A stretch of 56,626 nt of DNA from positions 1-56,626 of the forward strand of contig JAIDRX010000123.1 in the NCBI GenBank assembly GCA_029061495.1, given 5' to 3'. Below are positions 9,866 through 56,626 of this stretch, piece by piece. Made by a program: the position numbers and the translations under genes. This stretch comes from Clostridia bacterium (GTDB taxonomy: Bacteria > Bacillota > Clostridia > Christensenellales > Borkfalkiaceae). Below the pieces are notes generated by a model. That model made no database searches. It was not told where the DNA came from and saw nothing but the letters and a program-made list of their open reading frames with translations. Numbering within the stretch: position 1 is the stretch's first letter; every line of letters starts with the position of its first letter.

Positions 9866-9905
9866 ACGATTTGACCGTCGGGGGCAATACAATTTTTTAT
9901 TAGCT

Positions 9906-20490: not shown

Positions 20491-20700
20491 TAAAAACGGA
20501 CGCGCTTAAAAACCTTACGAATCCGTAAGGACAAACGCGTCCGTGCGCGTTTGATTTAATCCGAATCAAACGTTATATGCAATGCAGGTCTGGCGTTCGG
20601 ACTTGTCCGCTCGAAGCGGCTTACCGTTGCGGTACAGTTACGGAATTTAACCGTATTCCCCGTTTAATGCACATACTTTTTAGCCGTGCAGCCTGCAAGG
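20491..20700 (-). promoter_or_regulatory. cobalamin (B12) riboswitch with intrinsic-terminator expression platform
   Basis: Minus strand has P1 TGCAGG...CCTGCA, the core AAACGGGGAATACGGTTAAATTCCGTAACTGTACCGCAACGGTAAGCC and a B12-box-like AAGTCCGAACGCCAGACCTGC. This is followed by the terminator ACGGACGCG...CGCGTCCGT-TTTTTA (20491-20544). Confidence 0.85.
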
Positions 20701-20708
20701 ATTAAGTT

Positions 20709-23036
20709 TTAAATTATTTTATCAAGCGTTTTGACTAATTCAAGCGCGTCGCGCGTGTAATAGTCTGCGCCGATTTCTTTCGCTATTTCGGGGTTAAGAA
20801 CTGCTCCCCCCACGAAAATTTTGCTTTGTATCCCCGCGGTCTTTAACGCGGAAACAGTCTGCTCCATACTCTTAACAGTCGTGGTCATAAGCGCGGAAAG
20901 CCCCACCGCCTGCGGTCTGTGCGTTTTGCACGCTTCTACAACTGCCTCAGGGTCTACGTCCTTGCCGAGGTCTATCACCTCGTAACCGTAGGACTGCAGG
21001 ACGACTTTTACTATATTTTTGCCTATGTCGTGAACGTCGCCTTTAACCGTTGCAAGCGCAATTTTCGCCTTTTTTGCCGCACCCTTCGGAAGCCGCGTTC
21101 CCACGACGTCAAACGCGCACTTTGCCGCCTCCGCGGATGATACGAGCTGAGGTAAAAACAATTTTCCGCTGTCGTACTCTCTGCCGACTTCTTCCAAAGC
21201 TTTTATCAATATATCGTTTACAACAGTCATAGGCTCGCGTGTTTCAAGCTCTCTTTCGCACAGCTCCGCCGCCTGCTTTTTTATACCTTTTTTAATGCAG
21301 TCGTACAAATTAGCCGCCGCGGCATGTTCTGTCTGCGCAGGCTTTAACGCGCTGACCGTACCCGTAAAGTCCTTGTAAATATCGATATAATTTTCAGAAT
21401 TTTTATCCTCACCCGAAAGCACGGCAAACGCCTTGACCGCGTCCGTCATCTCTCCGTCCATAGGGTTCATAATGGGCATATTGAGTCCGCACGTCATTGC
21501 CATGGTAAGGAAGGTTTTGTTGAGTAGTCCCCTGTTTGGAAGCCCGAATGAAACGTTAGAGACCCCAAGCGCAGTTTTAACGCCCAGCTTTTTAACAAGT
21601 CTCAAAGCCTCGACTGTCTCTTTAACTAACTCCTGTTCGGCGGAGGCCGTCAAAACGAGGGTGTCTATCATTATTTTGTGTTTGGGTATACCGTAGCTTT
21701 CCGCGCGGTTTATAATGCGCTTTGCTATCTCCAAGCGTTCCTTTGCCGTTTTGGGAACGCCGCCTTTATCCATCGTAAGCCCCAAAACTACCGCGCCGTA
21801 TTTTTTTGCGACGGGGAAAATTTTGTCCATTACTTCGCTATCGCCGTTCACGCTGTTTATAAGCGGTATGCCGTTGTAGTAGCGCGCTGCGCGCCCGATA
21901 GCCTGCGCGTCGGACGAGTCTATCTGTAATGGCAGATTTACGTATTCCTGAATTTTTTTGACGGCTTTGACCATTACCGCCTTTTCGTCAAGCTGGGGCA
22001 GCCCCACGTTCAAATCGAGAATGTCCGCCCCCGCTTCCTGCTGTGCGACAGCCTCGTCTATTAAAAAGTCGTAATTTTCGGCAAGCAAGGCTTCTTTCAG
22101 CTTTTTCTTGCCCGTGGGGTTAAGCCGTTCGCCGCAGATTTTTACTCCGTCAATTACTACGGCTTTCGTTGCCGAGTTTACAACCGTCTGCTTTGCGACC
22201 CTGCGCCTTTTAACTTTGCGGCCCGAGTACTTACTTATCCTCTCTATAAATTCGGGGTTGGTGCCGCAGCAGCCGCCGACTATGCTTACGCCGCTTTTTA
22301 TAAACTTATTTATATAGTAGTCGAACTCATCTATGCCGAGGACGTACTCGGTTTTTCCGTCCTTTAAAACGGGCAAGCCGCGGTTGGGCTTTACCATTAC
22401 GGGAACGCTTGTACAGGCAAGAAACGCGTTTACAACCCATTCAAGCTCCTTAGGACCTGCCGAACAGTTTACGCCCAGCGCGTCAACGCCAAGGCCTTCC
22501 AAGGTGTTTGCAACTATTTCGGGCGTGGAGCCCGTAAGCGTTCTGCCGGTAGAGTCGAAGGTCATAGTCGCAAAAACGGGCTTATCGCTGTGCTCTTTTA
22601 TAGCGAGTATGCAAGCCTTAATTTCGTACAAGTCGGAAAATGTTTCGGCGATATATCCGTCAACCAAATCTTTGGTGTAATCAACCACTTCGGCAAAGGC
22701 TTCGTATGCCTCGTCGAAAGTGAGCGTGCCCAAAGGCTCTATCATTGCGCCCGTGGGACCTATATCGAAAATTACTTTTTTACCCGCGGCGCGCGCGTTT
22801 TCAACGGCTTTTAAGGCAAGCTCTTTTATAGAGTATTTTCCCTTGTATTTGATTTTGTTGAGACCGAAGGTATTCGTCATTATGCAGTCCGCGCACGAAT
22901 ACGAGCGGTGAATAGACTTTATAACTTCGGGGTGGGTGATATTCAGCTCTTCGGGAACGCCATCAAAGCCAAGCTTTTCAAGCTCGCTGCCCATTCCGCC
23001 GTCGAAAACTAAGACTATTTCTCTGAGTCGTAGCAT
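20709..23036 (-). CDS. metH: cobalamin-dependent methionine synthase lacking the reactivation domain (Hcy-MT, pterin-binding, B12-cap and B12-binding modules)
   Basis: 775 aa. N-terminal homocysteine S-methyltransferase domain, pterin-binding barrel and the DxHxxG motif (GDVHDIGKN). Confidence 0.92.
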   Translation of the reverse strand: MLRLREIVLVFDGGMGSELEKLGFDGVPEELNITHPEVIKSIHRSYSCADCIMTNTFGLNKIKYKGKYSIKELALKAVENARAAGKKVIFDIGPTGAMIEPLGTLTFDEAYEAFAEVVDYTKDLVDGYIAETFSDLYEIKACILAIKEHSDKPVFATMTFDSTGRTLTGSTPEIVANTLEGLGVDALGVNCSAGPKELEWVVNAFLACTSVPVMVKPNRGLPVLKDGKTEYVLGIDEFDYYINKFIKSGVSIVGGCCGTNPEFIERISKYSGRKVKRRRVAKQTVVNSATKAVVIDGVKICGERLNPTGKKKLKEALLAENYDFLIDEAVAQQEAGADILDLNVGLPQLDEKAVMVKAVKKIQEYVNLPLQIDSSDAQAIGRAARYYNGIPLINSVNGDSEVMDKIFPVAKKYGAVVLGLTMDKGGVPKTAKERLEIAKRIINRAESYGIPKHKIMIDTLVLTASAEQELVKETVEALRLVKKLGVKTALGVSNVSFGLPNRGLLNKTFLTMAMTCGLNMPIMNPMDGEMTDAVKAFAVLSGEDKNSENYIDIYKDFTGTVSALKPAQTEHAAAANLYDCIKKGIKKQAAELCERELETREPMTVVNDILIKALEEVGREYDSGKLFLPQLVSSAEAAKCAFDVVGTRLPKGAAKKAKIALATVKGDVHDIGKNIVKVVLQSYGYEVIDLGKDVDPEAVVEACKTHRPQAVGLSALMTTTVKSMEQTVSALKTAGIQSKIFVGGAVLNPEIAKEIGADYYTRDALELVKTLDKII

Positions 23037-34225: not shown

Positions 34226-34846
34226 TTACGCTTTGCTTTTAACCTTCATAAGGCGAACGACTGCGGCGCGCTCGTTTTCGTCAAGTTTAGATTTGATGTA
34301 TTTTATGGTTTCCTGAAGCTGAGGTATCATAACGTACTCAAGCGCGTTTACGCGCCTTTTGTTGCGCTCTATCTCCTCTGCAAGCATACGCACAGCCTTT
34401 TCCGTTGCGGCAAGTTCAACCATTTTAGGCAGAAGCGCCGCCGCCTGAATAACCGAAAAATCCGCCTCGCTCGTAATTTCGGAATACGCGTACGGGAGCC
34501 CCTCCGCCCTTTTTCCGCTTTCAAGCTTTATTTTAGGCACGTCAACGCCCATTACGCTTTCCGTTGCGCACTCAACCTTTAACGCAGTAGAAGGCATTGC
34601 AAAAGCCGCCTCCGCACTGTACGAAGGCGTAACCGAACGCGCGACGGAAAACTGCTTTAAAGTTTTTGACAACTCTTTTTCAACTTCGTCGCGCATGCGC
34701 TTATTTTCCTTAATAATTGCGGAAAAACGGCGCACCATCTCGTCCGATTTATCTTTTAAAAGTTTGTGCCCGCGCTCCGCCGTACTTAAACGGGCTTTAA
34801 GCTTTTTCAGCTCCATGCGCGTGGGGTTGACGTTTAAACGTGCCAT
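34226..34846 (-). CDS. ntpD: V-type ATP synthase subunit D
   Basis: MARLNVNPTRMELKKLKARL...GHKLLKDK, typical of V/A-ATPase D. Confidence 0.95.
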   Translation of the reverse strand: MARLNVNPTRMELKKLKARLSTAERGHKLLKDKSDEMVRRFSAIIKENKRMRDEVEKELSKTLKQFSVARSVTPSYSAEAAFAMPSTALKVECATESVMGVDVPKIKLESGKRAEGLPYAYSEITSEADFSVIQAAALLPKMVELAATEKAVRMLAEEIERNKRRVNALEYVMIPQLQETIKYIKSKLDENERAAVVRLMKVKSKA

Positions 34847-34856
34847 AAAAACCTCT

Positions 34857-35036
34857 CACAAAAATCTCGGCTATTCTGCGCCTGCGATTTTTCGTGAATT
34901 TCAGGGGCTACTCGCCCCTCGTGCCGCAATTTTTAAGGGCACACAAGCGTATAATTGCGGCACTTCATCCTCGGTCAGCCGCAAGTATGCGCAAATGCTG
35001 TGCGCTAACCCAAAAGTGTTATTTTGGGTTGCGCGG
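34857..35036 (-). repeat. structured intergenic repeat, copy 1 (between ntpB and ntpD)
   Basis: Aligns along its length with 38202-38376 (same orientation) and 55146-55320 (inverted). Four to five hairpins are conserved. Confidence 0.85.
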
Positions 35037-35045
35037 TAAAATTAT

Positions 35046-36431
35046 TTAAGAATTATTGCCTTCTTTATGAAGGTATTTATCAATATATGCTTTTCTGATA
35101 CGTTTAAGCTCGCTTTCGGGCAGAATTTTTAAAAGCTCCCAGCCCAAATCAAGCGTTTCTTCTATCGGTCTGTCCGTTTCAAAGCCCTGGTTGACGTACA
35201 CCTTTTCAAACTGTTCGGCAAACTTTGCAAACAGTTTATCCGTGTCGGAAAGCGCCGCCTCGCCCAAAATTGCGGAAAGCTCTTTACTCTCCTTACCGCT
35301 TGAATACGCGGAGAAAAGCTGGTTCATAGTATCCGCGTGGTCCTCGCGCGTTTTGCCGTTGCCTATACCCTTATCTTTAAGTCGCGAAAGAGAGGGAAGC
35401 ACGTCGATAGGCGGGTTAATGCCCTTTTTATAGAGGTCGCGCGAAAGGATAATCTGCCCCTCGGTAATGTAACCCGTAAGGTCGGGAATGGGGTGCGTTT
35501 TGTCGTCCTCGGGCATGGTCAGAATGGGAATCTGCGTTATCGAGCCTTCACTGCCGCGGATTCTGCCCGCACGCTCGTACATGGTTGCAAGGTCGGTATA
35601 CAGATAGCCGGGGTAACCGCGCCTTCCGGGGACTTCACGCCTAGCCGCCGAAACCTCGCGCAGCGCTTCTGCGTAGTTTGTAATATCCGTCATTATAACT
35701 AAGACGTGCATGCCACAGGTGAACGCAAGGTACTCCGCGCAAGTCAAAGCCATACGGGGGGTTGCGATACGCTCTACCGCGGGGTCGTTTGCAAGGTTGG
35801 TGAAAAGCACCGTCCTCTCTATCGCGCCCGTCTTTTTAAAGTCGTCTATAAAGTACTGCGCTTCCTCGAAGGTTATGCCTATCGCGGCGAAAACAACCGC
35901 GAAGTTGCTGTCCGTTCCGCGAACCTTTGCCTGACGAGCTATCTGCGCCGCAAGCTCTGCGTGCGGCAGGCCGCTCATCGAGAATACGGGAAGCTTCTGT
36001 CCTCTTACGAGGGTGTTAAGTCCGTCTATTGCGGAAATACCCGTCTGAATAAATTCGTTGGGGTAGTCGCGGGCGGCGGGGTTTATAGGCTCGCCGTTGA
36101 TGTCCATCAACTTTTCGGGAATTATCGGTGCGCCGCCGTCGCGGGGATTACCCATTCCGTCGAACACGCGCCCGAGCATATCCTTCGATACCGCGAGCTG
36201 CTGGCTGTGGCCGGTAAAGCGCGCCTTCGCCTCAGAAATTTGCAGACCCTGCGAATTTTCAAAAAGCTGAACAACGGCTTTATCAAGATTAACTTCCAGA
36301 ACCTTTCCGCGACGGATTTCGCCGTTAGAGCAGATTATATCTACAAGCTCATTATACTTTACGCCCTTGACGTTTTCAACGAGCATTAAGGGGCCTACGA
36401 CCTCGCGTATGGTTTTATATTCTTTAAACAT
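35046..36431 (-). CDS. ntpB: V-type ATP synthase subunit B
   Basis: 461 aa, [19 protein letters not shown]..., regulatory B-subunit fold. Confidence 0.96.
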
Positions 36432-38187
36432 CTTCGCCGCCTCCCTGACAGAGCGACTTTAACTCCCCGCTCATAAGCTTTAAAATATCGTCAAATTCGG
36501 CAATATCTTCTTCCTTGATATATTTTGCGCGGCCTATTTTTTCCTTGCACGAGCATGCAAGTATGTCGTTTAATGAAGCGTAATTTTCAACCGCTTCACG
36601 TGCGCGCTGATTAAATTCATATATGAGTTTAAGCATTAAAAACTGCTTATGCATCGAAGTATAAGTGTCTACGTCGTCAAATGCATTCTGGTGCAGGAAG
36701 TCTTCTCTTATAATTTTAGCCGTTTCCATCGTAAGCCTGTCCTTTGACGAAAGAGCGTCCGTTCCGACGAGTCTTACGATTTCTTCGAGAGCCGCCTCCT
36801 CCTGCAAAATCGTCGTTACAAACAGGCGGTATTTTACGAATTCCGCCCCGACGTTTTCGGAGTACCAGTCCTTCATTTTGTCGGCGTAAAGCGAATAGCT
36901 TATAAGCCAGTCTATTGCGGGGAAGTGCCTCTTGTATGCAAGAGAAGCCGAAAGTCCCCAGAAAACCTTTACGATTCTCAGCGTTGCCTGTGCTACGGGT
37001 TCGCTCAGATCGCCTCCGGGAGGGGAAACCGCGCCTATTGCCGTAACCGAGCCGGTACGCTCGCCCGAACCTAAAAGCTTGACGATACCCGCACGCTCGT
37101 AAAACTCCGCAAGTCGGCTTGCAAGGTACGCGGGGTATCCTTCGTCGCCGGGCATTTCCTCGAGTCGTCCGCTCATTTCGCGGAGAGCTTCCGCCCAGCG
37201 CGATGTCGAGTCCGCCATTATCGCGACGTTGTAGCCCATATCGCGGAAGTACTCCGCAATGGTAATACCTGTATAAATTGAAGCCTCGCGCGCCGCAACT
37301 GGCATATCGGAGGTGTTTGCTATAAGCACCGTACGCTTCATCAAAGGCTCGCCCGTTTTGGGGTCTTTAAGCGCGGGAAACTCGTTTAAAACGTCCGTCA
37401 TTTCGTTACCGCGCTCGCCGCAGCCTACGTAGACGATAATGTCTGCATCCGCCCACTTTGCAAGCTGGTGCTGAACGACGGTTTTACCGCTGCCGAAAGG
37501 ACCGGGAACTGCCGCAACTCCGCCTCGAGCTACGGGGAAAAGCGTATCTATAACTCTCTGACCCGTAACCATAGGTCTGTCGGGTGAAAGCTTTTCCTTA
37601 TAAGGTCTGCCTTTACGGACAGGCCACTTCCTCAGCATGCACACGGGCTTTTTGCCCGCGCCCGTCTGAATAACGGCAACCGTCTCCTCTATCGTAAAAT
37701 CACCTTCCGCAACGGAAACTACTTTTCCGCTTATTCCGTTGGGAACGAGAATTCTATGCTCTATAATTTCCGTTTCCTGCACGACGCCTAAAATATCACC
37801 CTCGGACACGGTATCGCCAGACTTCACGCGAGGCGAAAAATGCCACTTTTTATTTCTGTCCAAGTGGTTTACCGAAACGCCCCTCGATATACGCGAACCG
37901 TATTTAAAGAATAAATCGGTAAGCGGGCGTTGAATTCCGTCGAATATACCCGTAATAAGACCGGGTGCAAGCTCGGCGGAAAGAGGCTCTCCTGTGGATA
38001 CTACTTCCTCTCCGGGACCTAAGCCCGAAGTTTCTTCGTAAACCTGAATCGAAGCCTTGTCGCCTCTCAGCTCTATGACCTCGCCTATAAGTCCCAAATC
38101 GGAAACGCGCACGACGTCGTACATTTTACTGTCCGCCATGCCCTCCGCAATTATTAAAGGACCGGAAACTTTAACTGTTTTACCCAT
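36424..38187 (-). CDS. ntpA: V-type ATP synthase catalytic subunit A
   Basis: 587 aa with Walker A GPFGSGKT and the V-type non-homologous insert. Confidence 0.96.
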
Positions 38188-38201
38188 AAAAACTCCTATC
38201 T

Positions 38202-38376
38202 CACGAAATTCTCGACGTTCGATGATGTCGATAATTTCCGTGATTTGAGGGCTTCTCGCCCTCTGCCCGCAACGTTAGGGGCACACAAACATATAATTGC
38301 GGGCATTCACCTCGGTGAGCCGCAGGTTTGCGCAAATTGTGTGCGCTACGCAAAAAGCGTCGTTTTTGCTCGCGCC
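38202..38376 (-). repeat. structured intergenic repeat, copy 2 (between subunit F gene and ntpA)
   Basis: Same architecture as copies 1 and 3. See findings. Confidence 0.85.
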
Positions 38377-38399
38377 GTAAATAATTTTAAAAAAATCGC

Positions 38400-38717
38400 T
38401 TAGTTATTAAACAAAATATCTACGCCTAAAGCGCGCTCCATTGCGCTTTTAAGCATTTCGTCGCCATAGCCCGTGCTTCCGTTCTTTGACGGAATACTCA
38501 ACACTACGGGGTAAGGCTCCTCGTCGAAGCGTTTTAAAAATTCGCTTAAAGGGCGCGCAAGCTCTTCGGTTAAAAATATTATCTGATAGTCTTTTGCGAC
38601 TCTGCGCAAAACTTCCTTTGCCTTCGCCTCGTTTTCGGCAGGAAACGAGTCAACGCCCGCCGCCTTAAAAACGGTTATGCTGTCGCCGTCGCCGACTATC
38701 GCCATTTTACCCGTCAT
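38400..38717 (-). CDS. V-type ATP synthase subunit F
   Basis: 105 aa, MAIVGDGDSITVFKAAGVD... pattern of V-ATPase F. Confidence 0.9.
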   Translation of the reverse strand: MTGKMAIVGDGDSITVFKAAGVDSFPAENEAKAKEVLRRVAKDYQIIFLTEELARPLSEFLKRFDEEPYPVVLSIPSKNGSTGYGDEMLKSAMERALGVDILFNN

Positions 38718-43313: not shown

Positions 43314-46300
43314 TTACTTGTTGCCTTCAAACTTGTCATAGAAGCCGTCGATATCGAAAATATCGTCCATACGGCTGTCACGGCTTTCGCGGCTGTCGAG
43401 ACTGTCGCGGTTTTCCGTGCGGCTTGCGGATTCCCTCGTGCGGTTAGTCGTATCTACCGTCGTAGTAGTTGTGATTACCGCATCGGGCGGATACATCGTA
43501 GGGGTGTTTACCGCACCCGACTGCGACTCCGCTTCGATTACCTGAGGGGGCTGTTCCGCGGGCTGTGCAGGCTGTTTGTTTGCCATGTTCATAGCCGAGA
43601 GTATCAACGCCCCGACAAGGTTAGCGGGAATTGCGGGCATATCTCCCGAAGCAATTGCATTTTGCAAGTCAGGTAAAACCGAAGGCTGGTTGTAACCGTA
43701 GCGCGAGTCTGCGCGCAGGCGTGCGAATTCCGTCTTCATCTTTTCAACCGCAACTTCCTGAGAAGCTTTAAGCTCTGCCTCTCTCAATACGCGCTGTTCT
43801 GAACGCATTGCGGCAAGCTCCGCTTCTATCTTTGCCAACGCGCTCGATTCTCCGCCGTAAGGTGCAGGCGAGTACGAAGGCGAAGGCGCAGCGTGCGATG
43901 CGCGTAAAGCCGCCAGTTCTGCCTTTAATTCCGCAATAACGTTTGCGTCCACATTATTTTGAGGCTGTTGCGCGGGTTGTTGAACGGGCTGCTGTACCTG
44001 CTGGGGAGCGGGTTGCTGTTGCTGAGCTTGCTGAGCTTCCATCTGCGCACGCATTTTAGCCATTTCGGCTTCCATCTTAGCGCGCTCGATTTCCATCTGA
44101 GCTTTAGCCTTTGCCGCTTCCGCTTCGGCGCGCGCCGCCCTGCCGTCGTCCGCCATAGCCATACCTGCCATAGCCGCCATGGGCATTCCTGCCGCCGCGG
44201 CCGCCGCAGCTTTAGCTTCTTCTTTCTCTTTCTTAGCTTCCTCTTCGGCTGCCTTCTTCTTTTTCTTCTTCTTTGCTACAGCGATTATTATTATCAACAG
44301 TATCAAAAGCAGAAGCGCCGCGCCGCCGATTACGAACCACAGCCAGTTATTCTTTACGAAGTTCAACGCGCTTCCGAAGAACGCCGCCGCTCCGCTCTGA
44401 GGTACGGTATACTCTACCATTTCGCTGGTAGTTTTACCATTCGCAAATACGAAGTTGTCTTTATCAGCGCCGCCTAAATAAGCCTCTACCCAGAAAGAGT
44501 TTCCACCCTTGAAATCAACGGTCTTTTCGGGTATCGCCGCTTTATCTGTACGGTAGCCATACTCCAACGAAAGGTCGATTTTTTCCTCGGCAATCATCGC
44601 CGTTACCCACTCGGGCAGGTTAACCGAAGCGCCGTCCTTTCCTTTGAGGTTCCAGAGGTTGTCGCCGTCAAGAACGAAGGGTTTAATCTCCCAGGTGTAG
44701 TTTGCATTGACGTCGTCGCCTGTAACCGCAAGCGTTTCGTCAACTACCGTGTAACGCGCAAGCGCCTTCATAGGCTCCTGTGTATTCTCAGGGTATGCCC
44801 AGACGTAGTTCGTGCTGGTAAGCGTAAGCGTTGCTTTGTAGTCATCACCTACGTTGCGCTCCTCCGTGTACGCCGTCCACTTTATGAGAGGGTCGCCCTC
44901 GTCGTTTACCATATCAAGGTACAACTTATAGTTGGCGTCAAGGTGATCCGTAAGCTTAATATTTACGCCGTTGAATATTATGTCGCCCGTAATCTGGGGA
45001 ACAGCTATCGGCTTGGGTGTAACGGTGAAGGTTGCACTGCTCTTTGCAAGCTTGTAAATTTCAAGCTCGTCTTCGTTTGTAATCTTAAACGTAAGCTTAT
45101 ACTCACCCGCGTTCTTAATGTATTCGCCGAAGTTTGCAAGCTCCGTAAATTTAAGCGTGTTTTTATCGCCGTTGGGAGCTTCGATTTCTACTTCGAGATA
45201 CTCTCTGTTGTCATACGTCTGACGGGAATCCGTCGTATCGTTGTTGATGAAGTAATAAGCGTTAAGCGCAAACTTAACATCGCCGTAAACCGAAGTTGCA
45301 TTTTCAAGGCTTATATAAATTTTAAGCTTGTTATCGCCTATCGAAGAGTTATAAGTGCTGTTTGCTCCGTCGAAAGCTATGTCGTAATTCTTTTTAGCGT
45401 CGTCGGACAAATCCGCCGTTACTTTTATAGAGATAGGCTGACCGTTTTCGTCCGCTATTGCGAACAGATCTGCTATCATTTCGTCCTTGTCAACGTCGGT
45501 TTTAGTCTCACCGCCGGGAATCGTATACGTATACTTATACTCGATAAGCTCCGCAAGCTTTTTAGCGGTTTCATCGTCGCCGACGATTTTTACACCGGGC
45601 AGATTGAACTCGTGTCCGTCGTCGTCCGAAAGAGTCTGGCCGTACTTATTCCAGCCGTTAACGGTAACCTTGGTCTTTCCGATTTCCCACTCGAAGTCGG
45701 GCAAATCGGTCGTTTTAAGCGTATAGTTCTTTGCAGATTCTCCGCTTAGCGTAGCCGAAGCCGTCGTTGTATTTTTCGGGTTTGCCGTAGTAGGTAAATT
45801 TACGCCGTAATCGCCCTCATACTCAATCTCGATATCGTCAAGGCTAATGCCTAAGCCCTTGAGATAATCGTCCGAAACCTTTACGTAAATACGCTTGCCC
45901 GTGTAGGAAGGCTTATTGGTATCCGAGTACTTCGTCCAGGTTGCGTCGGCCGCGGGTTTTTCATTGTTTTTTGAAGTATAATATACCCACTCTACAACCG
46001 AGTCGCCGCCGTCGTCAACGAAGGAAATAACCTTTTTAGCAATCTCCCACTCGAAGTCAACGTACGCCGTCTTTTTGCTGTCCGCCGTATACGTAGACTT
46101 GTCAGCCGTATCAAACTCGTAGCTCGAGCCGTCCTTTATCTTGACATAAATTCTCGTTACGTGCGTGCCTGCATTGCTGAACTTGTTGCCGTATTCCTTG
46201 CCGTCGACCGTGCCTATTTCGAAGCCGTTCGTACCCTTTGAGGTATCGAGTTCGAGATAGTCCAAATCCGACAAATCAGCCGTAATTAAAATGTTAGTTG

Positions 46301-49300
46301 CCGTCCAGACTTCACCGGATTTCGTTGCCTTATATTCGAGCTTGGTATTGTCGTCTGCGTTGTCCGCGTTTTTAACGTACTTTGCAGGGTTAACGCCCGA
46401 GTTTTCGTGCTGCCAGTTCCATATAATTCTGCTTACGTCAACCTTGCCCGCGCCGACGGTAATTTCCCTCGTCTTTACTCCCTCTAACTTAGGGGTGAAG
46501 TGGTTATCGTCAAACTTTAAGCAATAATTGTCGTTTGCGTTACCCGCAGCGCCTGCCGCAACCTGAATAAGCAAGAAATAGGTTGCCTGCTCGTCAAAGG
46601 TTGCAATATCAACGTCTAAATCGCCGTAACCGATATCGCTCTGCAATGCGGTAATATTACCTGCCGCGCCGCTCGCATACTTGTACCAGCTTACGTTAAA
46701 GGTAACGACGTCGCCTGTAATAAGACCGGTAAGCGAATTTGCTTTTGCGGTAATTCCGTCGTCCGCGGTAGTGCCTGCGTCCCAAATCCAGACCTCATTT
46801 CCGTCCTTTGTTACGGGGGAAACAAGCTCGAAATCGAGCTGAGCCTTTTTAACCGTGCAGGTTACTATCTGTGCACCCGTGGGATTGTCGTTATCGTCCC
46901 ACTTGTAGTTGCGCGTGCTGGTCAAATCGAACTTAACCGCGTAGTCGCCTGCGTTAGTCGCAGTGAACGGGGTTGTCGTCGTTTTGTTTGCGTTATTTAC
47001 AGGCGTACCCTTAGTTAAGTCTGAATAAGTTTTTGAACCGTCTACAATACTGTCGCAAGCCGTAACTTTTACAGCGTCCGTGTTGTAGGTGTAGTTAACG
47101 GTCTGCGTGCTACCGTTATACGTTCCCGAACCGGTTGCAAACGCCGCCGTGGGCACGCTAATCTTTTGAGCCTCGATTGTGAAGCTGAACGTGCTTGTGC
47201 TTGCCGTGTCAAGGATATAGTCGCTTGTAGCCATAGGGTTTAAAATTACGGTAGCAGTATACTCGCCCGCCTCTTTAGGTGCGGTTGAGCTGCCGAGACC
47301 AAGCGCGCTGTTGTCCTTATCCTTACTATCGTCATTATAAGTATCGTCCGCCGCGGTTCCGTAATTGTTATTTGTACCTACGTAGAAAATCTGTACGGGG
47401 CAATTCGTTTTGGTTGCGCCGGTAGTCGTAAACGTAATGTCTACTACAACCGCAACGTTATCAAAAGTTACTTTACCGCCCGCAGTAACGGCATCCGTGC
47501 CGTGCTTCGCACTTAAAGTGAACGAAGCTTTGGTCTTTTCGATTTCAAAGTTCCAAACGTGAACCAAAGGCTCGTGGTTGGTTGCGGTTATAAGCGTGTA
47601 AACAACGTACTTGCCCGCGCTCGTTTTGGTAACCGCGCCTGCGCTCTGCCAGAAAGTCGGGTGGTCTGCCGCAGGTGTTGAAGCAGGGATATTCGAATCG
47701 CCCTCCGTGAATACGACGTGCTTTTGCGCGCTTGTAGAAACGCCCGCTTTAAGTATTATGTAGCCGTTGGGTATAAGTACGTTTTGCGCGCTACCAGTGT
47801 ACGACTTTTTATCGTACTGGTTAGTTGTATCGGGGTCTTTAACGCTTATCGCCGCACCCGTTACGGTGAAGGTAGCCTTTGCCTCGTTTCCTGCCGTAGG
47901 AGCGGTCCCGTCGGGCTTTAAGAAGGTTACCGTATAGTTAGCGTTTGTACACTTTGCTGTTATGTCGTAAGTACCCTGCGCCGTATAGCCGCTTGATACC
48001 ACAGCGGGGCTTGAAAGCACCACGGGATAAACGCTGTTTACGATATCCACATCCGCCGCAATAAAAGTCTTGCTGGTATCCATGTAGCGCCAACCGCTCT
48101 TATACACTTTGCTTCCGTTTGCGTAAATGCGGTTTGCGGGCGCAGTTGCACTGTCTACAAGGTTGCCCTTACTGTCGTAATATTTACCGTTATCCGTGGT
48201 AATATCGCCCACGGCCATTTCATTAGTTGTTACGGGTTTTTGGTTAAGCGCAACCTTAACGCTGTACTCCGCCCAGTCGTCGTGCAAAATTATTGTAACG
48301 GGGCGCGGAGTTATGGTAAACTGTGCGTTTGTATAAGTTATATTGTAGTTTTTGTTTGTAGTTGCCGTTATGTCATTCGTAATTACGTAACCGCCGGCGT
48401 TATGGCCGTAGTACTTTGAAAGTTGTACGCCTAAATCCGAATAGTTATCCCAGCTTGCAAGCGTGCTGCTGCTATCAAGCTGCCAGCCGCCCTTCGGCGC
48501 GCCGAGGGTAGGATCTACCGTGTTGTTAAAGTTGTTGTCCAGCGTAATCGTCTCGCCGTACATTTGGTTGTCGTTGTTTATAATAACCGCTATATCTTTG
48601 GGTACGATTTCAATACTGAACGAATTATAATAAGCAACACCGGTTAGAGGTACGGGTTGTATATCGAAAAAGAAATTATAAGTACCCGTTTGGTTTAATG
48701 CGGTGCTGTTAAGCACATCGGTCTCGGTGTAACTAATGGTAGTCGCGCCTGCCGGGGCGGGATTAACCTTTTCCTCGACTAAAACAGCCTTATCAAAGTT
48801 GGTTCCGCCTTCCGTACCGTTAGGCCAGGTAAACGTTGCAGTGGTTGTGCCGTCGGTGCCAACGGCCTTTACAGCCTTAATTTTTTCACCGTATGTAAAT
48901 TTTGCGTAAAGTGAACCATCGTTAAGGTTAACCCAGTTGCTGTCAGTGCCGTCTGCATTCTCCGTCTTATAAGACCATTTAAAATAGCTTGTTCCCGTAC
49001 TATCCGCAACAAACCTTAAAGCGGTATTCACAAGATTAAATTTATAACCTTTATTCTGACTACTGAAAAACTGGGACCAGTGATATCCGCAGAGGTTATC
49101 GGACGTTACGCCTTTAACTATGTCTTGATTTGTTGCAGTGCCGCAAGAACTGTAAATTCCTACCTGAGCGGACTTACCGTTTTTATACAGAGGTCCCGTT
49201 ACCGTTAACTGACCGTATTCTTCAAGCCATAAATCGTGAGGAAGGTTGTTGCTAGCGGTGTCGGTTTTACCGTTGTTTGCTATAACTACCGGTCCGCCTA

Positions 49301-50780
49301 TTTCAATTTTGGAATATTTAGCTATGGTAACGCCTTCGCACGTATCCGCATAAGAATAGCCGGTATCACCTTTATTGTTGTCAACAATCTGTCCGCCGTT
49401 AAGATATACGTAACATTTATACGTGCCGTTGTTGCCGTATCCGGCACAAATTCCCGTAGAGCCGTATCCGTCGGGCATTGAATCGTTGCCCTTTATAATA
49501 CCGCCGTTCATTGTGAAATCGGACTTGTTGCAAAGCTTAACGCCGCCGCCTTCCATACCGTAGTTGTATGAAACTTCGCCGCCGTTCATAACTACGGTAG
49601 AGCTTGACTCTATATACATTCCGCCGCCGCCCGTACGAGCTTTGGTATTGCCCGTAGAAGAGACGTAAGAAGTTCCAAGCGCACGGTTGCGGGTAATTTT
49701 ACCGCCGTTAATTTCAACAAGGTTTGCATTAGATATATACAGTCCGCCGCCTGGACCCTGCGCTACGTTGTATGAAATTTCACCGCCGTTAATAACGGCT
49801 GTACTGTTTGCGTAAATCTGTCCGCCCGCGCCGCCGTCGGTTGTCGCGCTTGTTTGGTTGCGGGTAATTTTACCGCCATACATTGTGAAGTCTGAACCTT
49901 CAATCGCGAAACCGCCCGCCCAATCGGCAGAGTTATTTGAAATTTCGCCGCCGTACATATTGAACGTACTGCCGCCGTATACGTATACGCCGCCGCCCAG
50001 AGACTTCTTTTTGGAGTTAGTCTTTATTGTTTGGTTGTCGGTAATTTTGCCGCCGTACATATTGAAAGTACCGCCGTTACCGCCGTTATTCGTCACTACT
50101 ACGCCGCCGCCGCCGGCAGTTTGCGCAACATTAGTATCTTCAGGCTCGCCCTTGTTACCCGTAATGGTGCCGCCGTACATATTCAAAACGCCGCTGTCGT
50201 TCCAGACGCCGCCGGCGGAATAGTCGTGTCCGCCCGTGATAACGCCGCTGTCGTCACCCGAACCGTCTATAATATTAAGCGTACCGCAGTTCACCCATAT
50301 AACCATACCGTCTATTGACGACGGCAAGTCTTTCAGCCCTCTGTCAAGAGTGTGACCGTTTAAATCAAGCGTTATGGTTACGCCAGCCGGTATGTAAAGC
50401 GTACCTTGGGTTTGCGAAACGTCAGTCGGAGTTATACCGAAATCCGGACTGCCCGACGTAGAGGGCGCAGTCCAGTCGTCTTCAAGTTTTATAAGGGTGT
50501 GCTTGCCCGCATAGCGTATAGCCTCGTCCCAAGCCGCAGCCTTTTCTGCATCGCTTGAGCCCTGTTTTATCGTAATTTCGTAATCGTAATTAGTATTTAA
50601 GGTAGGCTTAATAGCCGCCGCCGCGCTTGAAGCGCTTGCGCCGGTTCCGTTGCCGTCTGCAAGTCCTTTAAGTTTGTCTGCCCTGCTGTTTAAGCCCAAA
50701 ATCGTGCCGACCGTAACCGTGCAAGCAAGAAGTATTGCGCACAGTACGCTTAGCGCCACCTTTTTAAACAGTTTTGACAT
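43314..50780 (-). CDS. giant (2488 aa) cell-surface protein: signal/anchor, parallel beta-helix repeats, many Ig-like (MBG-type) modules, C-terminal TM and about 380-aa low-complexity cytoplasmic tail
   Basis: N-terminal hydrophobic signal. More than 10 repeats of '..GGG.....G.F.MYGG.I..N..'. Repeated 'YG/YDG...T.TP.P(I/V)T' modules. TM WLWFVIGGAALLLLILLIIIIAVA, then KKKKKKK, a coiled-coil A/E/K/M segment and a Q/P-rich segment. Confidence 0.85.
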   Translation of the reverse strand: MSKLFKKVALSVLCAILLACTVTVGTILGLNSRADKLKGLADGNGTGASASSAAAAIKPTLNTNYDYEITIKQGSSDAEKAAAWDEAIRYAGKHTLIKLEDDWTAPSTSGSPDFGITPTDVSQTQGTLYIPAGVTITLDLNGHTLDRGLKDLPSSIDGMVIWVNCGTLNIIDGSGDDSGVITGGHDYSAGGVWNDSGVLNMYGGTITGNKGEPEDTNVAQTAGGGGVVVTNNGGNGGTFNMYGGKITDNQTIKTNSKKKSLGGGVYVYGGSTFNMYGGEISNNSADWAGGFAIEGSDFTMYGGKITRNQTSATTDGGAGGQIYANSTAVINGGEISYNVAQGPGGGLYISNANLVEINGGKITRNRALGTSYVSSTGNTKARTGGGGMYIESSSTVVMNGGEVSYNYGMEGGGVKLCNKSDFTMNGGIIKGNDSMPDGYGSTGICAGYGNNGTYKCYVYLNGGQIVDNNKGDTGYSYADTCEGVTIAKYSKIEIGGPVVIANNGKTDTASNNLPHDLWLEEYGQLTVTGPLYKNGKSAQVGIYSSCGTATNQDIVKGVTSDNLCGYHWSQFFSSQNKGYKFNLVNTALRFVADSTGTSYFKWSYKTENADGTDSNWVNLNDGSLYAKFTYGEKIKAVKAVGTDGTTTATFTWPNGTEGGTNFDKAVLVEEKVNPAPAGATTISYTETDVLNSTALNQTGTYNFFFDIQPVPLTGVAYYNSFSIEIVPKDIAVIINNDNQMYGETITLDNNFNNTVDPTLGAPKGGWQLDSSSTLASWDNYSDLGVQLSKYYGHNAGGYVITNDITATTNKNYNITYTNAQFTITPRPVTIILHDDWAEYSVKVALNQKPVTTNEMAVGDITTDNGKYYDSKGNLVDSATAPANRIYANGSKVYKSGWRYMDTSKTFIAADVDIVNSVYPVVLSSPAVVSSGYTAQGTYDITAKCTNANYTVTFLKPDGTAPTAGNEAKATFTVTGAAISVKDPDTTNQYDKKSYTGSAQNVLIPNGYIILKAGVSTSAQKHVVFTEGDSNIPASTPAADHPTFWQSAGAVTKTSAGKYVVYTLITATNHEPLVHVWNFEIEKTKASFTLSAKHGTDAVTAGGKVTFDNVAVVVDITFTTTGATKTNCPVQIFYVGTNNNYGTAADDTYNDDSKDKDNSALGLGSSTAPKEAGEYTATVILNPMATSDYILDTASTSTFSFTIEAQKISVPTAAFATGSGTYNGSTQTVNYTYNTDAVKVTACDSIVDGSKTYSDLTKGTPVNNANKTTTTPFTATNAGDYAVKFDLTSTRNYKWDDNDNPTGAQIVTCTVKKAQLDFELVSPVTKDGNEVWIWDAGTTADDGITAKANSLTGLITGDVVTFNVSWYKYASGAAGNITALQSDIGYGDLDVDIATFDEQATYFLLIQVAAGAAGNANDNYCLKFDDNHFTPKLEGVKTREITVGAGKVDVSRIIWNWQHENSGVNPAKYVKNADNADDNTKLEYKATKSGEVWTATNILITADLSDLDYLELDTSKGTNGFEIGTVDGKEYGNKFSNAGTHVTRIYVKIKDGSSYEFDTADKSTYTADSKKTAYVDFEWEIAKKVISFVDDGGDSVVEWVYYTSKNNEKPAADATWTKYSDTNKPSYTGKRIYVKVSDDYLKGLGISLDDIEIEYEGDYGVNLPTTANPKNTTTASATLSGESAKNYTLKTTDLPDFEWEIGKTKVTVNGWNKYGQTLSDDDGHEFNLPGVKIVGDDETAKKLAELIEYKYTYTIPGGETKTDVDKDEMIADLFAIADENGQPISIKVTADLSDDAKKNYDIAFDGANSTYNSSIGDNKLKIYISLENATSVYGDVKFALNAYYFINNDTTDSRQTYDNREYLEVEIEAPNGDKNTLKFTELANFGEYIKNAGEYKLTFKITNEDELEIYKLAKSSATFTVTPKPIAVPQITGDIIFNGVNIKLTDHLDANYKLYLDMVNDEGDPLIKWTAYTEERNVGDDYKATLTLTSTNYVWAYPENTQEPMKALARYTVVDETLAVTGDDVNANYTWEIKPFVLDGDNLWNLKGKDGASVNLPEWVTAMIAEEKIDLSLEYGYRTDKAAIPEKTVDFKGGNSFWVEAYLGGADKDNFVFANGKTTSEMVEYTVPQSGAAAFFGSALNFVKNNWLWFVIGGAALLLLILLIIIIAVAKKKKKKKAAEEEAKKEKEEAKAAAAAAAGMPMAAMAGMAMADDGRAARAEAEAAKAKAQMEIERAKMEAEMAKMRAQMEAQQAQQQQPAPQQVQQPVQQPAQQPQNNVDANVIAELKAELAALRASHAAPSPSYSPAPYGGESSALAKIEAELAAMRSEQRVLREAELKASQEVAVEKMKTEFARLRADSRYGYNQPSVLPDLQNAIASGDMPAIPANLVGALILSAMNMANKQPAQPAEQPPQVIEAESQSGAVNTPTMYPPDAVITTTTTVDTTNRTRESASRTENRDSLDSRESRDSRMDDIFDIDGFYDKFEGNK

Positions 50781-53941: not shown

Positions 53942-55087
53942 TTATTGCTTATCTACCTTTTTACCGTACACGGCGGAAAGGTTGTTAGAGTATCTTTGCA
54001 TGTTGTCGCACGATTTAAGCGGTACGCTGTTTTCATAATCGTTGAGCTTTTTAAGCTGATCTCGAGAGAGCTTCGAGGGGACTTCTATCTCAACCGTAAC
54101 GTACAGGTTGCCCGTGCCGTTTACCGTCCTTACACCCTTGCCGCGCATACAGAAACGCGTGCCCGACGGAGTACACTCGGGAATTGCAAGCTCTAACGTG
54201 TCGTCGATTCCGGGAACCTGAATTTTGCCGCCCTGCACCGCCGTTCTGTAAGAGATGGGAACGGTTACATACAAATCTCTGTCCTCGCGGCGGAGCATCT
54301 TGTGCGGCTCTATACGGAAGTAAACGTACAAATCGCCGCTCTCCCCTCCGTTACCCGCCGCCTGACCGTAGCCGCGCTTTCTTAAACTGCTGTCCTTATC
54401 AACGCCTGCGGGTATGTTTATTGTGAAGCGCGTCTCTCTGCGCTGATAGCCCTTGCCCTTGCAGTCGGGGCATTTGTCGGTTATCTCTTTACCCGTGCCG
54501 CCGCAGTCGGGACATGCGCCAACCTGAATTGTTCTACCGAAAATAGTATCCTGCTGAAATTTTACCTTGCCGCTTCCGCCGCAACGCCCGCATTTTTTAA
54601 ACGCGGTGCCGTCCTTTGCGCCCGTGCCGTTACACGAAGCACAGGGCTGGTTGCGCATATAGCTTATCTCTTTCGAGCAGCCTTTGATAGCATCAAGGAA
54701 GGAAAGACTGACCGTATGCTCGATATCGGCGCCGCGCGCCCTCTTGGGTTCGCCGCCTCCGAATGCTCCGCCGAACGAGCCGCCGAACATAGAACTTATT
54801 ATATCCTCGAAGCCGCCCATGCCTCCGCCCGAAAATCCGCCGGAAAAAGGATTTCCGCCGCCCATGCCGGGGTGTTCGAGCTCGAAGTCGTACTGCTTAC
54901 GCTTTTGCTCGTCCGAAAGGACTGCGTTAGCCTCGTTTATTTCCTTAAACTTTTCCGCCGCCGCTTTGTCGCCGGGGTGAAAGTCGGGGTGATACTGCTT
55001 AGCAAGCTTTCTGTAAGCCGACTTGATTTCGTCCTGCGACGCGGTTTTGGATATGCCGAGAATATCGTAATAGTTTTTATCCGCCAT
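53942..55087 (-). CDS. dnaJ: molecular chaperone DnaJ
   Basis: J domain (YYDILGISK...HPD), G/F region and four CxxCxGxG zinc-finger repeats. Confidence 0.97.
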   Translation of the reverse strand: MADKNYYDILGISKTASQDEIKSAYRKLAKQYHPDFHPGDKAAAEKFKEINEANAVLSDEQKRKQYDFELEHPGMGGGNPFSGGFSGGGMGGFEDIISSMFGGSFGGAFGGGEPKRARGADIEHTVSLSFLDAIKGCSKEISYMRNQPCASCNGTGAKDGTAFKKCGRCGGSGKVKFQQDTIFGRTIQVGACPDCGGTGKEITDKCPDCKGKGYQRRETRFTINIPAGVDKDSSLRKRGYGQAAGNGGESGDLYVYFRIEPHKMLRREDRDLYVTVPISYRTAVQGGKIQVPGIDDTLELAIPECTPSGTRFCMRGKGVRTVNGTGNLYVTVEIEVPSKLSRDQLKKLNDYENSVPLKSCDNMQRYSNNLSAVYGKKVDKQ

Positions 55088-55145
55088 AGAGATATGTCCT
55101 TAAATGCGCCTTAACTTGATGTGTGATTAATAATAAATATTTTTA

Positions 55146-55320
55146 GGCGCAAGCAAAACCACGCTTTTGCGTAGCGCACACAATTTGCACATACCTGCGC
55201 CTCAGCGAGGTGAATTCGCGCGATTATATAAGTTTTTGCCCTTACATATCGCGCGAAGAGGGCGAGTAGCCCTCAAAATCACGAAATTTTCCGTGCGCAT
55301 AATAGCACGGAAAATTTGTG
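55146..55320 (+). repeat. structured intergenic repeat, copy 3 (between dnaK and dnaJ, inverted relative to copies 1 and 2)
   Basis: The plus strand here aligns with the minus strand of copies 1 and 2. It has the same hairpin series. Confidence 0.85.
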
Positions 55321-55327
55321 AATTGTA

Positions 55328-56626
55328 TTAGTGCTGTCTGAACTCCGTATCGTCGCCGTTGCCGCCGTCGGGATTACCCTGACCGCCCGCCTGCTGATAC
55401 ATCTTAGCAACTATAGGCTGAATTTCGTTAGAGAGCGTATCGATAGCCGCCTTTATGCGGTCGTTGTCGTTTGACTCGAGTTCGGTCTTTGCCTTTGCTA
55501 CCGCATCCTCTACTACCTTCTTGTCGTCGTCGGAGAGCTTGTCGCCCGCTTCCTTTACGGTCTTTTCAAGGCTGTCTATCATGCTCTCGAGCGTGTTTTT
55601 GTTGTCAACCGCTTCCTTACGCTTTTTGTCCTCTTCCGCATACTTTTCAGCGTCCTTGACCGCCTTGTCGATATCCTCTTCGGAAAGGTTTGTAGAAGCC
55701 GTTATCGTAATGTTTGTACTCTTGCCCGTACCCAAATCCTTTGCCGTAACGTTTACAATGCCGTTAGCGTCTACGTCGAAAGTAACTTCAATCTGGGGAA
55801 CTCCGCGGGGTGCGGGGGGAATATCGGTAAGCATAAACTTACCTAACGATTTATTGTCGCGGGCGAACTTTCTTTCACCCTGCAAAACGTTGATTTCAAC
55901 GCCGGGCTGATTATCCGCCGCGGTTGAGAATACCTGACTCTTTTTAACGGGGATGGTCGTGTTTCTCTCGATTAAAGGAGTTGACACGCCGCCGAGTGTT
56001 TCGATGCCGAGAGTCAGAGGCATAACGTCAAGCAAAAGCACGTCTTTGACTTCGCCCGATAAAACGCCGCCCTGAATAGCCGCGCCGATAGCCACACACT
56101 CGTCGGGGTTGATGCCCTTGAAAGGTTCTTTGCCCGTAACACTCTTTACCTTATCGAATACGGCGGGGATACGCGTCGAGCCGCCGACCATAATAACTTT
56201 GTTTATATCGCCGTAGGAAAGTCCCGCATCCTGCATAGCCTTTTTCATGGGCTCGACAGTCCTTTCAACGAGATCTGAAGTCAAGCTGTCGAACTTCTGC
56301 TTTGAAAGGTCTATATCGAGGTGCTGGGGGGTACCGTCTACTACCGTAATGAAGGGAAGGTTGATATTTGTCGTGCTCATGCCCGAAAGCTCTATCTTAG
56401 CCTTTTCAGCCGCTTCTTTAAGCCTCTGCATAGCCGCCTTATCTTTTGAAAGGTCTACGCCCGTCTCCTTCTTAAAGGTGTCTACGAGGTAGTCCATAAT
56501 CTTGTTGTCGAAGTCGTCGCCGCCGAGGTGGGTATCGCCGTTGGTTGCCAAAACTTCGAATACGCCGTCGCCGATTTCGAGAATGGAAACGTCGAAGGTG
56601 CCGCCGCCGAGGTCGTAAATCATGAC
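55328..56626 (-). CDS. dnaK: molecular chaperone DnaK, C-terminal about 433 aa (N-terminus outside window)
   Basis: Open to the window edge. Begins ...[17 protein letters not shown], contains the substrate-binding domain, and ends with a G/D-rich tail. Confidence 0.97.

Follow-up and report, generated by a model that had tools for sequence, protein, structure and literature searches.

Several kinds of structured intergenic repeat have been described in bacteria. The bcr repeats of the Bacillus cereus group are transcribed in untranslated regions and operon spacers, and one of them, bcr1, a repeat of about 155 bp with 5-bp direct repeats at its ends, a high copy number and a two-stem 'cruciform-like' fold, has an RNA structure kept by compensatory changes (PMC3184786, PMC3446304). 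BOX elements are co-transcribed with neighbouring genes and are reported to modulate their expression (Knutsen et al. 2006, as summarised in PMC3184786), and hairpins of the repetitive extragenic palindromic (REP) type and the mosaic elements built from them (BIME) are described in the same summary as stabilising upstream mRNA segments, with differential operon expression at malE-malF (Stern et al. 1988, via PMC3184786). Here we describe a repeat of five helices found three times in a 56,626-nt stretch of DNA from an uncultured Clostridia bacterium (GenBank assembly GCA_029061495.1, contig JAIDRX010000123.1, positions 1 to 56,626; this whole stretch is called the window below), twice inside an operon for a vacuolar-type ATPase (V-ATPase) and once between dnaK and dnaJ. 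The pairing of its five helices is maintained by compensatory change. We tentatively read the element (probability about 0.45) as a new family of structured intercistronic repeats that would work through RNA, affecting the stability of mRNA segments, attenuation or the context of translation.

Five covarying helices in three operon spacers

Three intergenic gaps of the window hold copies of one element that can be aligned end to end, with pairwise identities of 74-82% (BLASTN, E 1e-21 to 1e-33) and folding z scores against dinucleotide shuffles of -3.6, -5.8 and -6.8. A preliminary description of this DNA, made from its letters, had reported copies in these gaps, and BLASTN and an nhmmer profile search of the whole window returned exactly these three and otherwise nothing above noise. 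Pfam also bears out the operon setting given there: copies 1 and 2 lie in a V-ATPase operon of the G-I-K-E-C-F-A-B-D type, where the B and D genes flank copy 1 and the F and A genes flank copy 2, and dnaK and dnaJ flank copy 3. The copies, numbered by position, are:

34854..35045, minus strand: copy 1, whole; in sense orientation, filling the gap from V-ATPase B (stop 35046-35048) to V-ATPase D (ATG 34844-34846)
38198..38399, minus strand: copy 2, the reference copy, whole unit; in sense orientation, filling the gap from V-ATPase F to V-ATPase A
55125..55324, plus strand: copy 3, whole; antisense to the dnaK-dnaJ operon, between the two genes

Covariance models were built twice, R1 from seven copies and R2 from thirteen matches. 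Copy 1 is matched at 34854-35036 (170 bits), and its 3' end, GTGAGAGG (= GUGAGAGG), is the ribosome-binding site of V-ATPase D. Copy 2 (matched at 38199-38377, 195 bits) is bordered by the F stop codon (38400-38402) on one side and by the AGGAG ribosome-binding site (38193-38197) and ATG (38185-38187) of A on the other; its AT-rich 5' leader (38378-38399) is common to other copies. Copy 3 (matched at 55145-55323, 191 bits) lies between the dnaK stop codon (55328-55330, minus strand), 4 nt from the element's 3' end, and the dnaJ ATG (55085-55087, minus strand).

The unit is about 180 nt long, or about 195-205 nt when its AT-rich 5' leader (...AAAWWATTTAC, about 20 nt) is included. It extends about 20 nt further 5' than the element of about 175-180 nt first described, and a tandem array described below has a period of 194. 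Five helices (P1 with hairpin A, B', C, D and a terminal hairpin) surround a near-invariant core of about 45 nt, and in copy 2 these parts fall as follows:

38343..38375, minus strand: P1 and hairpin A, with the A stem AGCAAAAA/TTTTTGCGT
38308..38342, minus strand: near-invariant core, made up of the linker ACACAATTTGCGCA and helix B' (AACCTGCGG/CCGAGGTG), with a Shine-Dalgarno-like GAGGTGA within
38264..38305, minus strand: hairpin C, TGCCCGCAAT/GTTGCGGGCA, with a 22-nt semi-conserved loop, UAUAU..UGUGUGCCCYUA
38247..38263, minus strand: hairpin D, GAGGGC-GAGAA-GCCCTC
38201..38243, minus strand: terminal hairpin, with a conserved closing TCACG.../...CGTGA and an interior that differs between paralogues

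P1 is GCGC/GCGC and encloses hairpin A, the stems of which are ACCCAAAA/TTTTGGGT in copy 1, GCAAAAA/TTTTTGC in copy 2 and GCAAAA/TTTTGC in copy 3. The stems of hairpin C are GTGCCGCAAT/ATTGCGGCAC, TGCCCGCAA/TTGCGGGCA and TTCGCGCGAT/ATCGCGCGAA in copies 1, 2 and 3, and both sets agree with those quoted in the preliminary description. The layout proposed there for hairpin D, GAGGGC-GAGwA-GCCCTC, holds, with a GAGNA loop, but the stem of copy 1 is AGGGGC/GCCCCT, a compensatory change. The terminal hairpin is long and, as had been suggested, varies in sequence while keeping its pairing, being closed across copies by UCACG/YGUGA (TCACG.../...YGTGA in DNA). What had been called a conserved linker is indeed conserved, but part of it forms a fifth small covarying helix, B' (CCU-G-CGG-CUCA-CCG-AGG). 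Linker and B' together (A-CACAAUUUGCGCAUACCUGCGGCUCACCGAGGUGAAU) are the best-conserved block of the element in both of its subfamilies, about 45 nt that include the Shine-Dalgarno-like GAGGUGA, and the core pattern ATTTGC.CA.AC.TGCG.CT.A.CGAGGTGAA is kept even in the subfamily that is only about 60% identical (loci L003 and L004, below).

For the pair counts, 12 distinct sequences, taken from the window genome and from several further uncultured Clostridia, were aligned by the covariance model. Standard pairs fill 96.5% of pair cells, compared to 72.1% in 500 column shuffles, none of which reached the observed values, and when partners are slid by 1-3 columns only 36-49% are paired. Changes on both sides are found in 39 of 53 pairs. 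Helix 1 (P1 and A) has them in 10 of its 12 pairs with 95% of cells paired, and helix 3 (hairpin C) in 8 of 10 with 100% of cells paired; compensatory pairs number four of six in helix 4 (hairpin D) and 14 of 17 in helix 5 (the terminal hairpin). Helix B' covaries as well (CGG/CCG versus CGC/GCG), with counts of GC:6 versus CG:4 at one pair and CG:6 versus UG:5 at another. These figures (96.5% paired against 72% when shuffled, 39 of 53 pairs compensatory) uphold the earlier claim of selection on structure and not recent duplication, and the covariance model that had been called for once more copies were aligned supports all five helices. From a structure-free MAFFT alignment of ten sequences, RNAalifold predicted P1, B', C, D and the terminal hairpin, 25 of the 40 predicted pairs being compensatory; hairpin A was misaligned in that alignment and was recovered in seven- and eight-sequence alignments.

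The strand on which this structure acts is uncertain. Wobble cells favour the element strand as read, whatever the orientation of the host gene (25 G-U versus 8 A-C), and a C-G pair in the middle of B' has become U-G in 5 of 11 sequences; Watson-Crick pairs account for 92% of pair cells. Strand assignment by folding energy proved equivocal, with minimum free energies about equal on both strands and the reverse complement as stable or slightly more stable in seven of ten copies.

The other genes of the window are ordinary chromosomal ones, among them genes for leucine/isoleucine biosynthesis, pectate lyase, SSB, MetH (with a cobalamin riboswitch) and an M60 peptidase. The cobalamin riboswitch (50 bits; 20570-20711, minus strand) comes straight after the metH stop codon (metH 20709-23036), and downstream of it are two open reading frames at 19956-20462 and 19198-19956 (minus strand) with no Pfam match, possibly genes of an unknown type related to B12. 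An open reading frame of 2488 residues (43314-50780, minus strand) with no Pfam domain at E<=0.001 lies immediately upstream of the V-ATPase operon.

Gain, loss and recombination in related genomes

The preliminary description had named further copies in related genomes as a test, and we found about ten, in at most about eight other uncultured Clostridia genomes, by two pattern scans and neighbour-gene look-ups; the loci fetched, with or without a copy, are numbered L001 to L024. The first pattern, 19 specified bases of the conserved linker matched by all 3 window copies, was scanned against 185,579 representative genomes and gave one true locus, L001, in a rabbit-gut Clostridia metagenome-assembled genome. 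The second, an independent pattern of 22 specified bases, was scanned against 241 million metagenome records and matched four contigs, L003-L006. Orthologous junctions were added through contigs that encode close homologues of the flanking proteins. The covariance model gave 13 strong matches and two weaker ones (one degenerate, one partial copy), and no other match in 142 kb of related DNA. In both of the collections that were scanned the family is rare, and its clade is a narrow group of uncultured gut Clostridia near 'Candidatus Coproplasma'.

The copies differ in completeness and number. The divergent subfamily of about 60% identity comprises two copies in L003 (L003a and L003b) and one in L004. 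Locus L005 carries a head-to-tail array (7187-7695) of 2.6 nearly identical units between permease and adenine deaminase genes, with a period of 194; the units abut directly, and the first (7187-7306) is truncated at its 5' end, inside helix B'. In L001 a degenerate, 3'-only second copy (7745-7893) sits beside a main copy that ends in a canonical terminator (14-bp stem and U6), which is found in this locus only. The dnaK-dnaJ spacer of L015 holds a solo 5' module (9885-9934) consisting of the AT-rich leader, a GCGCAA/TTGCGC stem and a small hairpin; it is sense-oriented, opposite to the window's antisense full copy at the same junction. Apart from these solo, truncated and degenerate cases in L015, L001 and L005, all copies keep their modules in one fixed order. 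A partial copy lies at a contig end in L024 (2194-2300), where each GCGC has become GTGC or GCAC and P1 is still paired (GTGC/GCAC); this loss of GCGC could reflect restriction avoidance or deamination of 5-methylcytosine in the host. A 15-nt identity to the core (TGCGCATACCTGCGG) inside a phosphatase coding region of L017 (3340-3362) is probably due to chance.

In relatives whose flanking proteins are 87-98% identical, the junctions occupied in the window variously hold the element, lack it or carry something different:

V-ATPase B-D junction: filled in the window; 18 nt in L007, L008 and L009 (D protein 97% identical); 2 nt in L011
V-ATPase B-D junction: an unrelated rod-like hairpin of about 125 nt in L010 and L012-L014
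V-ATPase F-A junction: filled in the window, in L021+L007 and in L022/L023, and partly in L024; empty in L020 (39 nt; F protein 98% identical) and L011 (92 nt)
dnaK-dnaJ junction: filled in the window; full element absent from L015-L019 (solo 5' module only in L015)

At the B-D junction the element replaces an older spacer and is not a clean insertion. The rod-like element found at this junction in relatives (L010 449-595, L012 566-712, L014 467-606) has the ends TAAATGCA...TGCATTTA and a consensus fold of -37 kcal/mol. The alternative spacers were also considered as homologues of the element and rejected, the one likeness being a weak reverse-strand resemblance in the F-A spacer of L011 (z 4.5), a spacer in which both covariance models find nothing. 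There, positions 5602-5693 on the reverse strand resemble the terminal hairpin of window copies 1 and 3, and may be a remnant.

The filled F-A junction of one relative is particularly informative. The end of L021 and the start of L007, both from sample ERZ14208509, form one F-A locus whose assembly is broken inside the element, a break implying that the genome contains a near-identical 5' part in at least one other place. The L007 copy is a mosaic: its first 60 nt are 95% like window copy 1, and over the last 60 positions, which run from hairpin D to the 3' end, it has 97% identity to window copy 2, with only 2 mismatches between the two orthologues. The adjacent A gene is 81% identical at third-codon positions in its first 126 nt and 64-76% identical further on, and for this reason we excluded a recombination tract as the source of the 97% conserved 3' half. 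The spacer across the element's other side is unalignable. Judged from these identities, the 3' part of the F-A copy is under purifying selection in place. The element recombines between copies and can duplicate in tandem.

Some further features were also considered. A pseudoknot between linker segment GCACACAA and loop-C motif TTGTGTGC is perfect in copy 2 and L006 only and is unsupported; changes in copy 1, copy 3, L001, L005, L007 and L003a break it with no compensation. An alternative-pairing switch among the three GCGC segments seems less likely, as the third segment does not covary in the divergent subfamily and L024 has lost every GCGC. The L024 segments have all changed together (GTGC/GCAC), and, every GCGC there being mutated, these changes are better explained by loss of GCGC sites. 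A small protein starting after GAGGTGA was likewise rejected: the frames are open in copy 2, L006 and L001 and closed after 5-11 codons in copy 1, copy 3, L005 and L007, and 1-nt indels separate the copies, which also counts against it.

Proposed action on operon mRNA and its rivals

The position of the element relative to its neighbours follows its orientation. In sense copies (window copies 1 and 2, L022, L005) the distance from the upstream stop codon to the element ranges from a few to about 45 nt, and 5-15 nt separate its end from the start codon that follows; neither copy 1 nor copy 2 has a terminator-like site on the operon strand. In antisense copies (window copy 3, L001, L003b, L006) about 3-10 nt lie between the 3' end and the stop codon of a convergent gene; the terminal stem is long and perfect, and its reverse complement scores as terminator-like on the host sense strand. 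On the operon sense strand of copy 3, terminator-like hairpins lie at 55317-55284 and 55178-55158.

The occurrence of both orientations, site polymorphism, inter-copy recombination and rarity make a dispersed repeat likelier than one dedicated cis-regulator. As such a repeat, the element would be transcribed within the host operon mRNA and its hairpins would act on that mRNA. For the downstream cistron, sense copies would define the structure on the 5' side and the setting of the ribosome-binding site, and they would block exonucleases once the polycistronic RNA has been cut. In antisense copies, the reverse complement of the terminal hairpin would form a 3' stabiliser or partial terminator. 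The V-ATPase genes between the two operon copies are:

36424..38187, minus strand: V-ATPase catalytic subunit A gene, directly downstream of copy 2; Pfam ATP-synt_ab, Xtn and VA_C
35046..36431, minus strand: V-ATPase subunit B gene, assigned by Pfam; with A it forms the pair bracketed by copies 2 and 1

By bracketing the A and B cistrons, the copies in this operon would favour a stable A-B segment. Each V-ATPase complex contains A and B in three copies apiece and F and D in one. DnaK is generally expected to be needed in larger amounts than DnaJ, and a role for copy 3 as 3' stabiliser of dnaK or as partial terminator fits this expectation. The occupied sites would be those where operon stoichiometry changes, from F(1) to A(3), from B(3) to D(1) and from dnaK down to dnaJ, and the presence of a different hairpin at the B-D junction in relatives fits a role in stoichiometry. 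Spread would occur through recombination or trans-acting mobilisation and not through a classical cut-and-paste mechanism of the kind used by MITEs (transposable elements of the miniature inverted-repeat type).

Several points weigh against this proposal. Co-transcription, processing and any effect on stability or translation are inferred. A functional RNA gene would be a better match than a proliferating repeat for the strongly conserved unpaired core and for the low numbers, about 1-3 copies per contig and few hits in very large collections. The strand bias of the wobble pairs is not predicted by an mRNA hairpin role that is independent of orientation, but strand energies are about equal. 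Any role must also be dispensable, since the very close relative L020 has no F-A copy, and the searches returned no mobilising enzyme, no terminal inverted repeat and no target-site duplication that would account for the spread.

If the proposal is right, the element is a covariation-supported structured intercistronic module in uncultured gut Firmicutes that is swapped between near-identical genomes, and it offers a natural experiment in the tuning of operon output by intergenic RNA structure. It would also provide a new model for RNA-family databases, in which it now matches nothing, and such a model would aid annotation and account for contig breaks in this clade's metagenome-assembled genomes.

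We compared the element with known RNA families and mobile elements. The preliminary description recognised in it no named RNA family, insertion sequence (IS), MITE or REP type, and this stands: there is no Rfam 15 match, and terminal inverted repeats, target-site duplications and transposase-type genes were not found in the searches that follow. Rfam 15 at gathering thresholds matched only a tRNA and the cobalamin riboswitch in the whole window, both elsewhere; at E<=10, copies 2 and 3 drew chance matches only (U2, 12.5 versus 46 bits; RAGATH-7-assoc, 15.6 versus 88.5 bits), and no Rfam family was matched, including the HEARO and IS605-orfB motifs if these are present in release 15. Plasmid and phage collections and viral contigs gave no match, and a limited full-text literature search gave nothing like the element. 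The family has no counterpart in Rfam 15 or in the phage, plasmid and viral collections that were searched.

A search of the three copies and their flanks for terminal inverted repeats gave internal hairpins only, with no shared end-to-end pair, and the left end, GCRAT(A/T)nTTAC, is not complementary to the right end, GTGAGAT. No target-site duplication is present at F-A (window/L022 compared to L020) or at B-D (window compared to L007 and L010), where boundaries are known to within a few nucleotides. Insertion polymorphism, as expected of a MITE, is seen at F-A, B-D and dnaK-dnaJ. No transposase, integrase or reverse transcriptase was found by Pfam in the window or in the gene tables of the fetched loci, with L001-L006 inspected as raw open reading frames; the window's Pfam hits include no Y1-transposase family, and tnpA, tnpB and iscB are absent from the window and from the gene tables of L007-L024, which speaks against a TnpB or IscB guide RNA. 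At about 180-200 nt and with five different hairpins, the unit is not of REP/BIME form, and, unlike the palindrome-associated transposable elements (PATEs) of the IS200/IS605 group, it has a hairpin A unrelated to its terminal hairpin, both of them differing between copies of one genome. It does not behave as a riboswitch or leader either: the genes downstream (V-ATPase A, V-ATPase D, adenine deaminase) are unrelated, and at least five copies (copy 3, L001, L003a, L003b, L006) are antisense or convergent to their neighbours. No sigma-70-type promoter was detected beside any window copy, although the consensus scanned may differ from this lineage's promoters, and neither the element nor the sequence upstream of it shows a conserved -35/-10 pair, the upstream flanks sharing the AT-rich leader only. 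In a search for trans targets, the complement of the core occurred in the window only within the elements themselves.

The foremost alternative, which we consider possible but distinctly less probable than action within operon mRNA, is that the element represents a hitherto undescribed class of structured non-coding RNAs with a function of their own: a protein-binding or regulatory RNA, a component of an RNA-protein complex or a self-processing ribozyme, with 1-3 paralogous genes per genome, transcribed alone or excised from operon transcripts, in which the core would be the active or binding site and the helices its scaffold. The genes would be restricted to this clade of uncultured gut Clostridia and would have settled in operon spacers by chance. 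Such a class would account for a near-invariant core that is kept in the subfamily of about 60% identity while the stems vary with compensation, for the low copy number and great rarity among the 185,579 representative genomes and 241 million metagenome records, and for the excess of G-U over A-C on the same element strand in all orientations; the canonical terminator of the L001 copy, the purifying selection on the 3' half and the existence of tandem paralogues are also in keeping with it. However, there is no conserved promoter upstream of the copies (the scan finds none beside those of the window), the abutting units of L005 leave no room for one, and the terminal hairpin is terminator-like in some copies only. 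Copies 1 and 2, moreover, are sense-oriented inside an essential operon, sites are gained and lost between near-identical relatives, the core complement has no target in the window, and the pseudoknot that was tested lacks covariation support. Were this alternative correct, the invariant core would be an obvious target for biochemistry. That same presence/absence polymorphism at three operon junctions among close relatives, together with the occurrence of both orientations, the assembly break inside the element in the L021/L007 relative, the existence of truncated and solo modules and a wobble strand bias independent of host transcription, would also suit a selfish non-autonomous mobile element with no host role, its hairpins kept for the folding of a single-stranded DNA or RNA intermediate. 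The enzyme recognising it would be encoded elsewhere and could resemble a Y1/HUH transposase, a REP-associated tyrosine transposase (RAYT) or a retroelement. A TTAC-like tetranucleotide often stands directly 5' of P1, reminiscent of IS608 targets. We nevertheless think this unlikely: besides having neither terminal inverted repeats nor target-site duplications, the element has two dissimilar end hairpins, each variable among the copies of a single genome, so that one sequence-specific enzyme could hardly recognise them. There is no transposase, reverse transcriptase or integrase in the window or the returned gene tables, copy number is low, the B-D copy replaces an older spacer, and the 3' half at F-A is conserved far above the neutral rate.

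Two other explanations appear more doubtful still. A cis-regulatory leader for the gene immediately downstream, whether riboswitch, thermometer or protein-binding attenuator, could explain why four sense loci (at V-ATPase A, V-ATPase D, adenine deaminase and the orthologous F-A copies) end 5-15 nt before a start codon, why the Shine-Dalgarno-like GAGGUGA is sequestered in helix B' and why the core is conserved. We judge it improbable, as the downstream genes are functionally unrelated and the copies that are antisense or convergent, at least five, already argue against it as a general explanation; nor is there a conserved terminator/antiterminator, an alternative fold that sequesters the ribosome-binding site or an Rfam riboswitch match. 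Least probable of all, and in our estimate very improbable, is an element that acts as DNA, be it a cluster of protein-binding sites (the palindromic TTTGCGCAAA and several GCGC motifs), a cruciform or a recombination site, in which the complementarity of the stems would arise by hairpin-templated repair and not by selection. In its favour, the two strands fold with equal energy, Watson-Crick pairs make up 92% of pair cells, palindromic motifs occur in the core and the neighbouring spacers are replacement hot spots. Against these stand the C-G to U-G change in the middle of B' in 5 of 11 sequences and the three-to-one ratio of G-U to A-C on one strand, which double-stranded DNA would not preferentially tolerate; no candidate binding protein or recombinase is linked, and five hairpins with loops of conserved sequence are atypical of operator sites. 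These three readings, the selfish mobile element, the riboswitch-like leader and the site acting as DNA, all rank below a structured repeat acting on mRNA and a functional RNA.

Comparison with described repeats and RNA motifs

A structured intercistronic repeat that acts on operon mRNA would not be the first of its kind, and orphan or riboswitch-like Rfam motifs offer a useful contrast. They share with the present element a conserved unpaired core and covarying helices, the signature used for functional RNAs. However, the present element has no consistent gene association or orientation, and its sites are polymorphic between near-identical genomes.

The bcr elements resemble it as intergenic repeats of Firmicutes, 150-300 nt long, with a distribution that varies between close strains (PMC3184786, PMC3446304), and they include a 'structured RNA' group, for example bcr10 and bcr18. 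Compared by description only, it differs from bcr1 in its five helices, its invariant core of 45 nt, its low copy number and its host lineage; its ends lack flanking direct repeats of the bcr1 type, while compensatory changes are present. With BOX of Streptococcus pneumoniae (boxA-boxB-boxC) it shares the nature of a highly structured intergenic repeat, perhaps also a modular one, that occurs in both orientations and has no known transposase (PMC3049150). BOX, however, exceeds 100 copies per genome and varies in how many boxB modules it contains, whereas the present element has few copies and a fixed module order, with occasional solo or truncated modules. Like the REP/BIME sequences of Enterobacteria, it takes intercistronic or 3' positions, preferentially following stop codons or lying between convergent genes; in contrast to REPs, which are GC-rich palindromes of 20-40 nt mobilised by RAYT, it is about five times longer, has a non-palindromic conserved core and is accompanied by no RAYT that we could see. 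By analogy with bcr, BOX and REP/BIME, its closest counterparts, the element is most probably of a known kind, that of structured intergenic repeats acting on mRNA.

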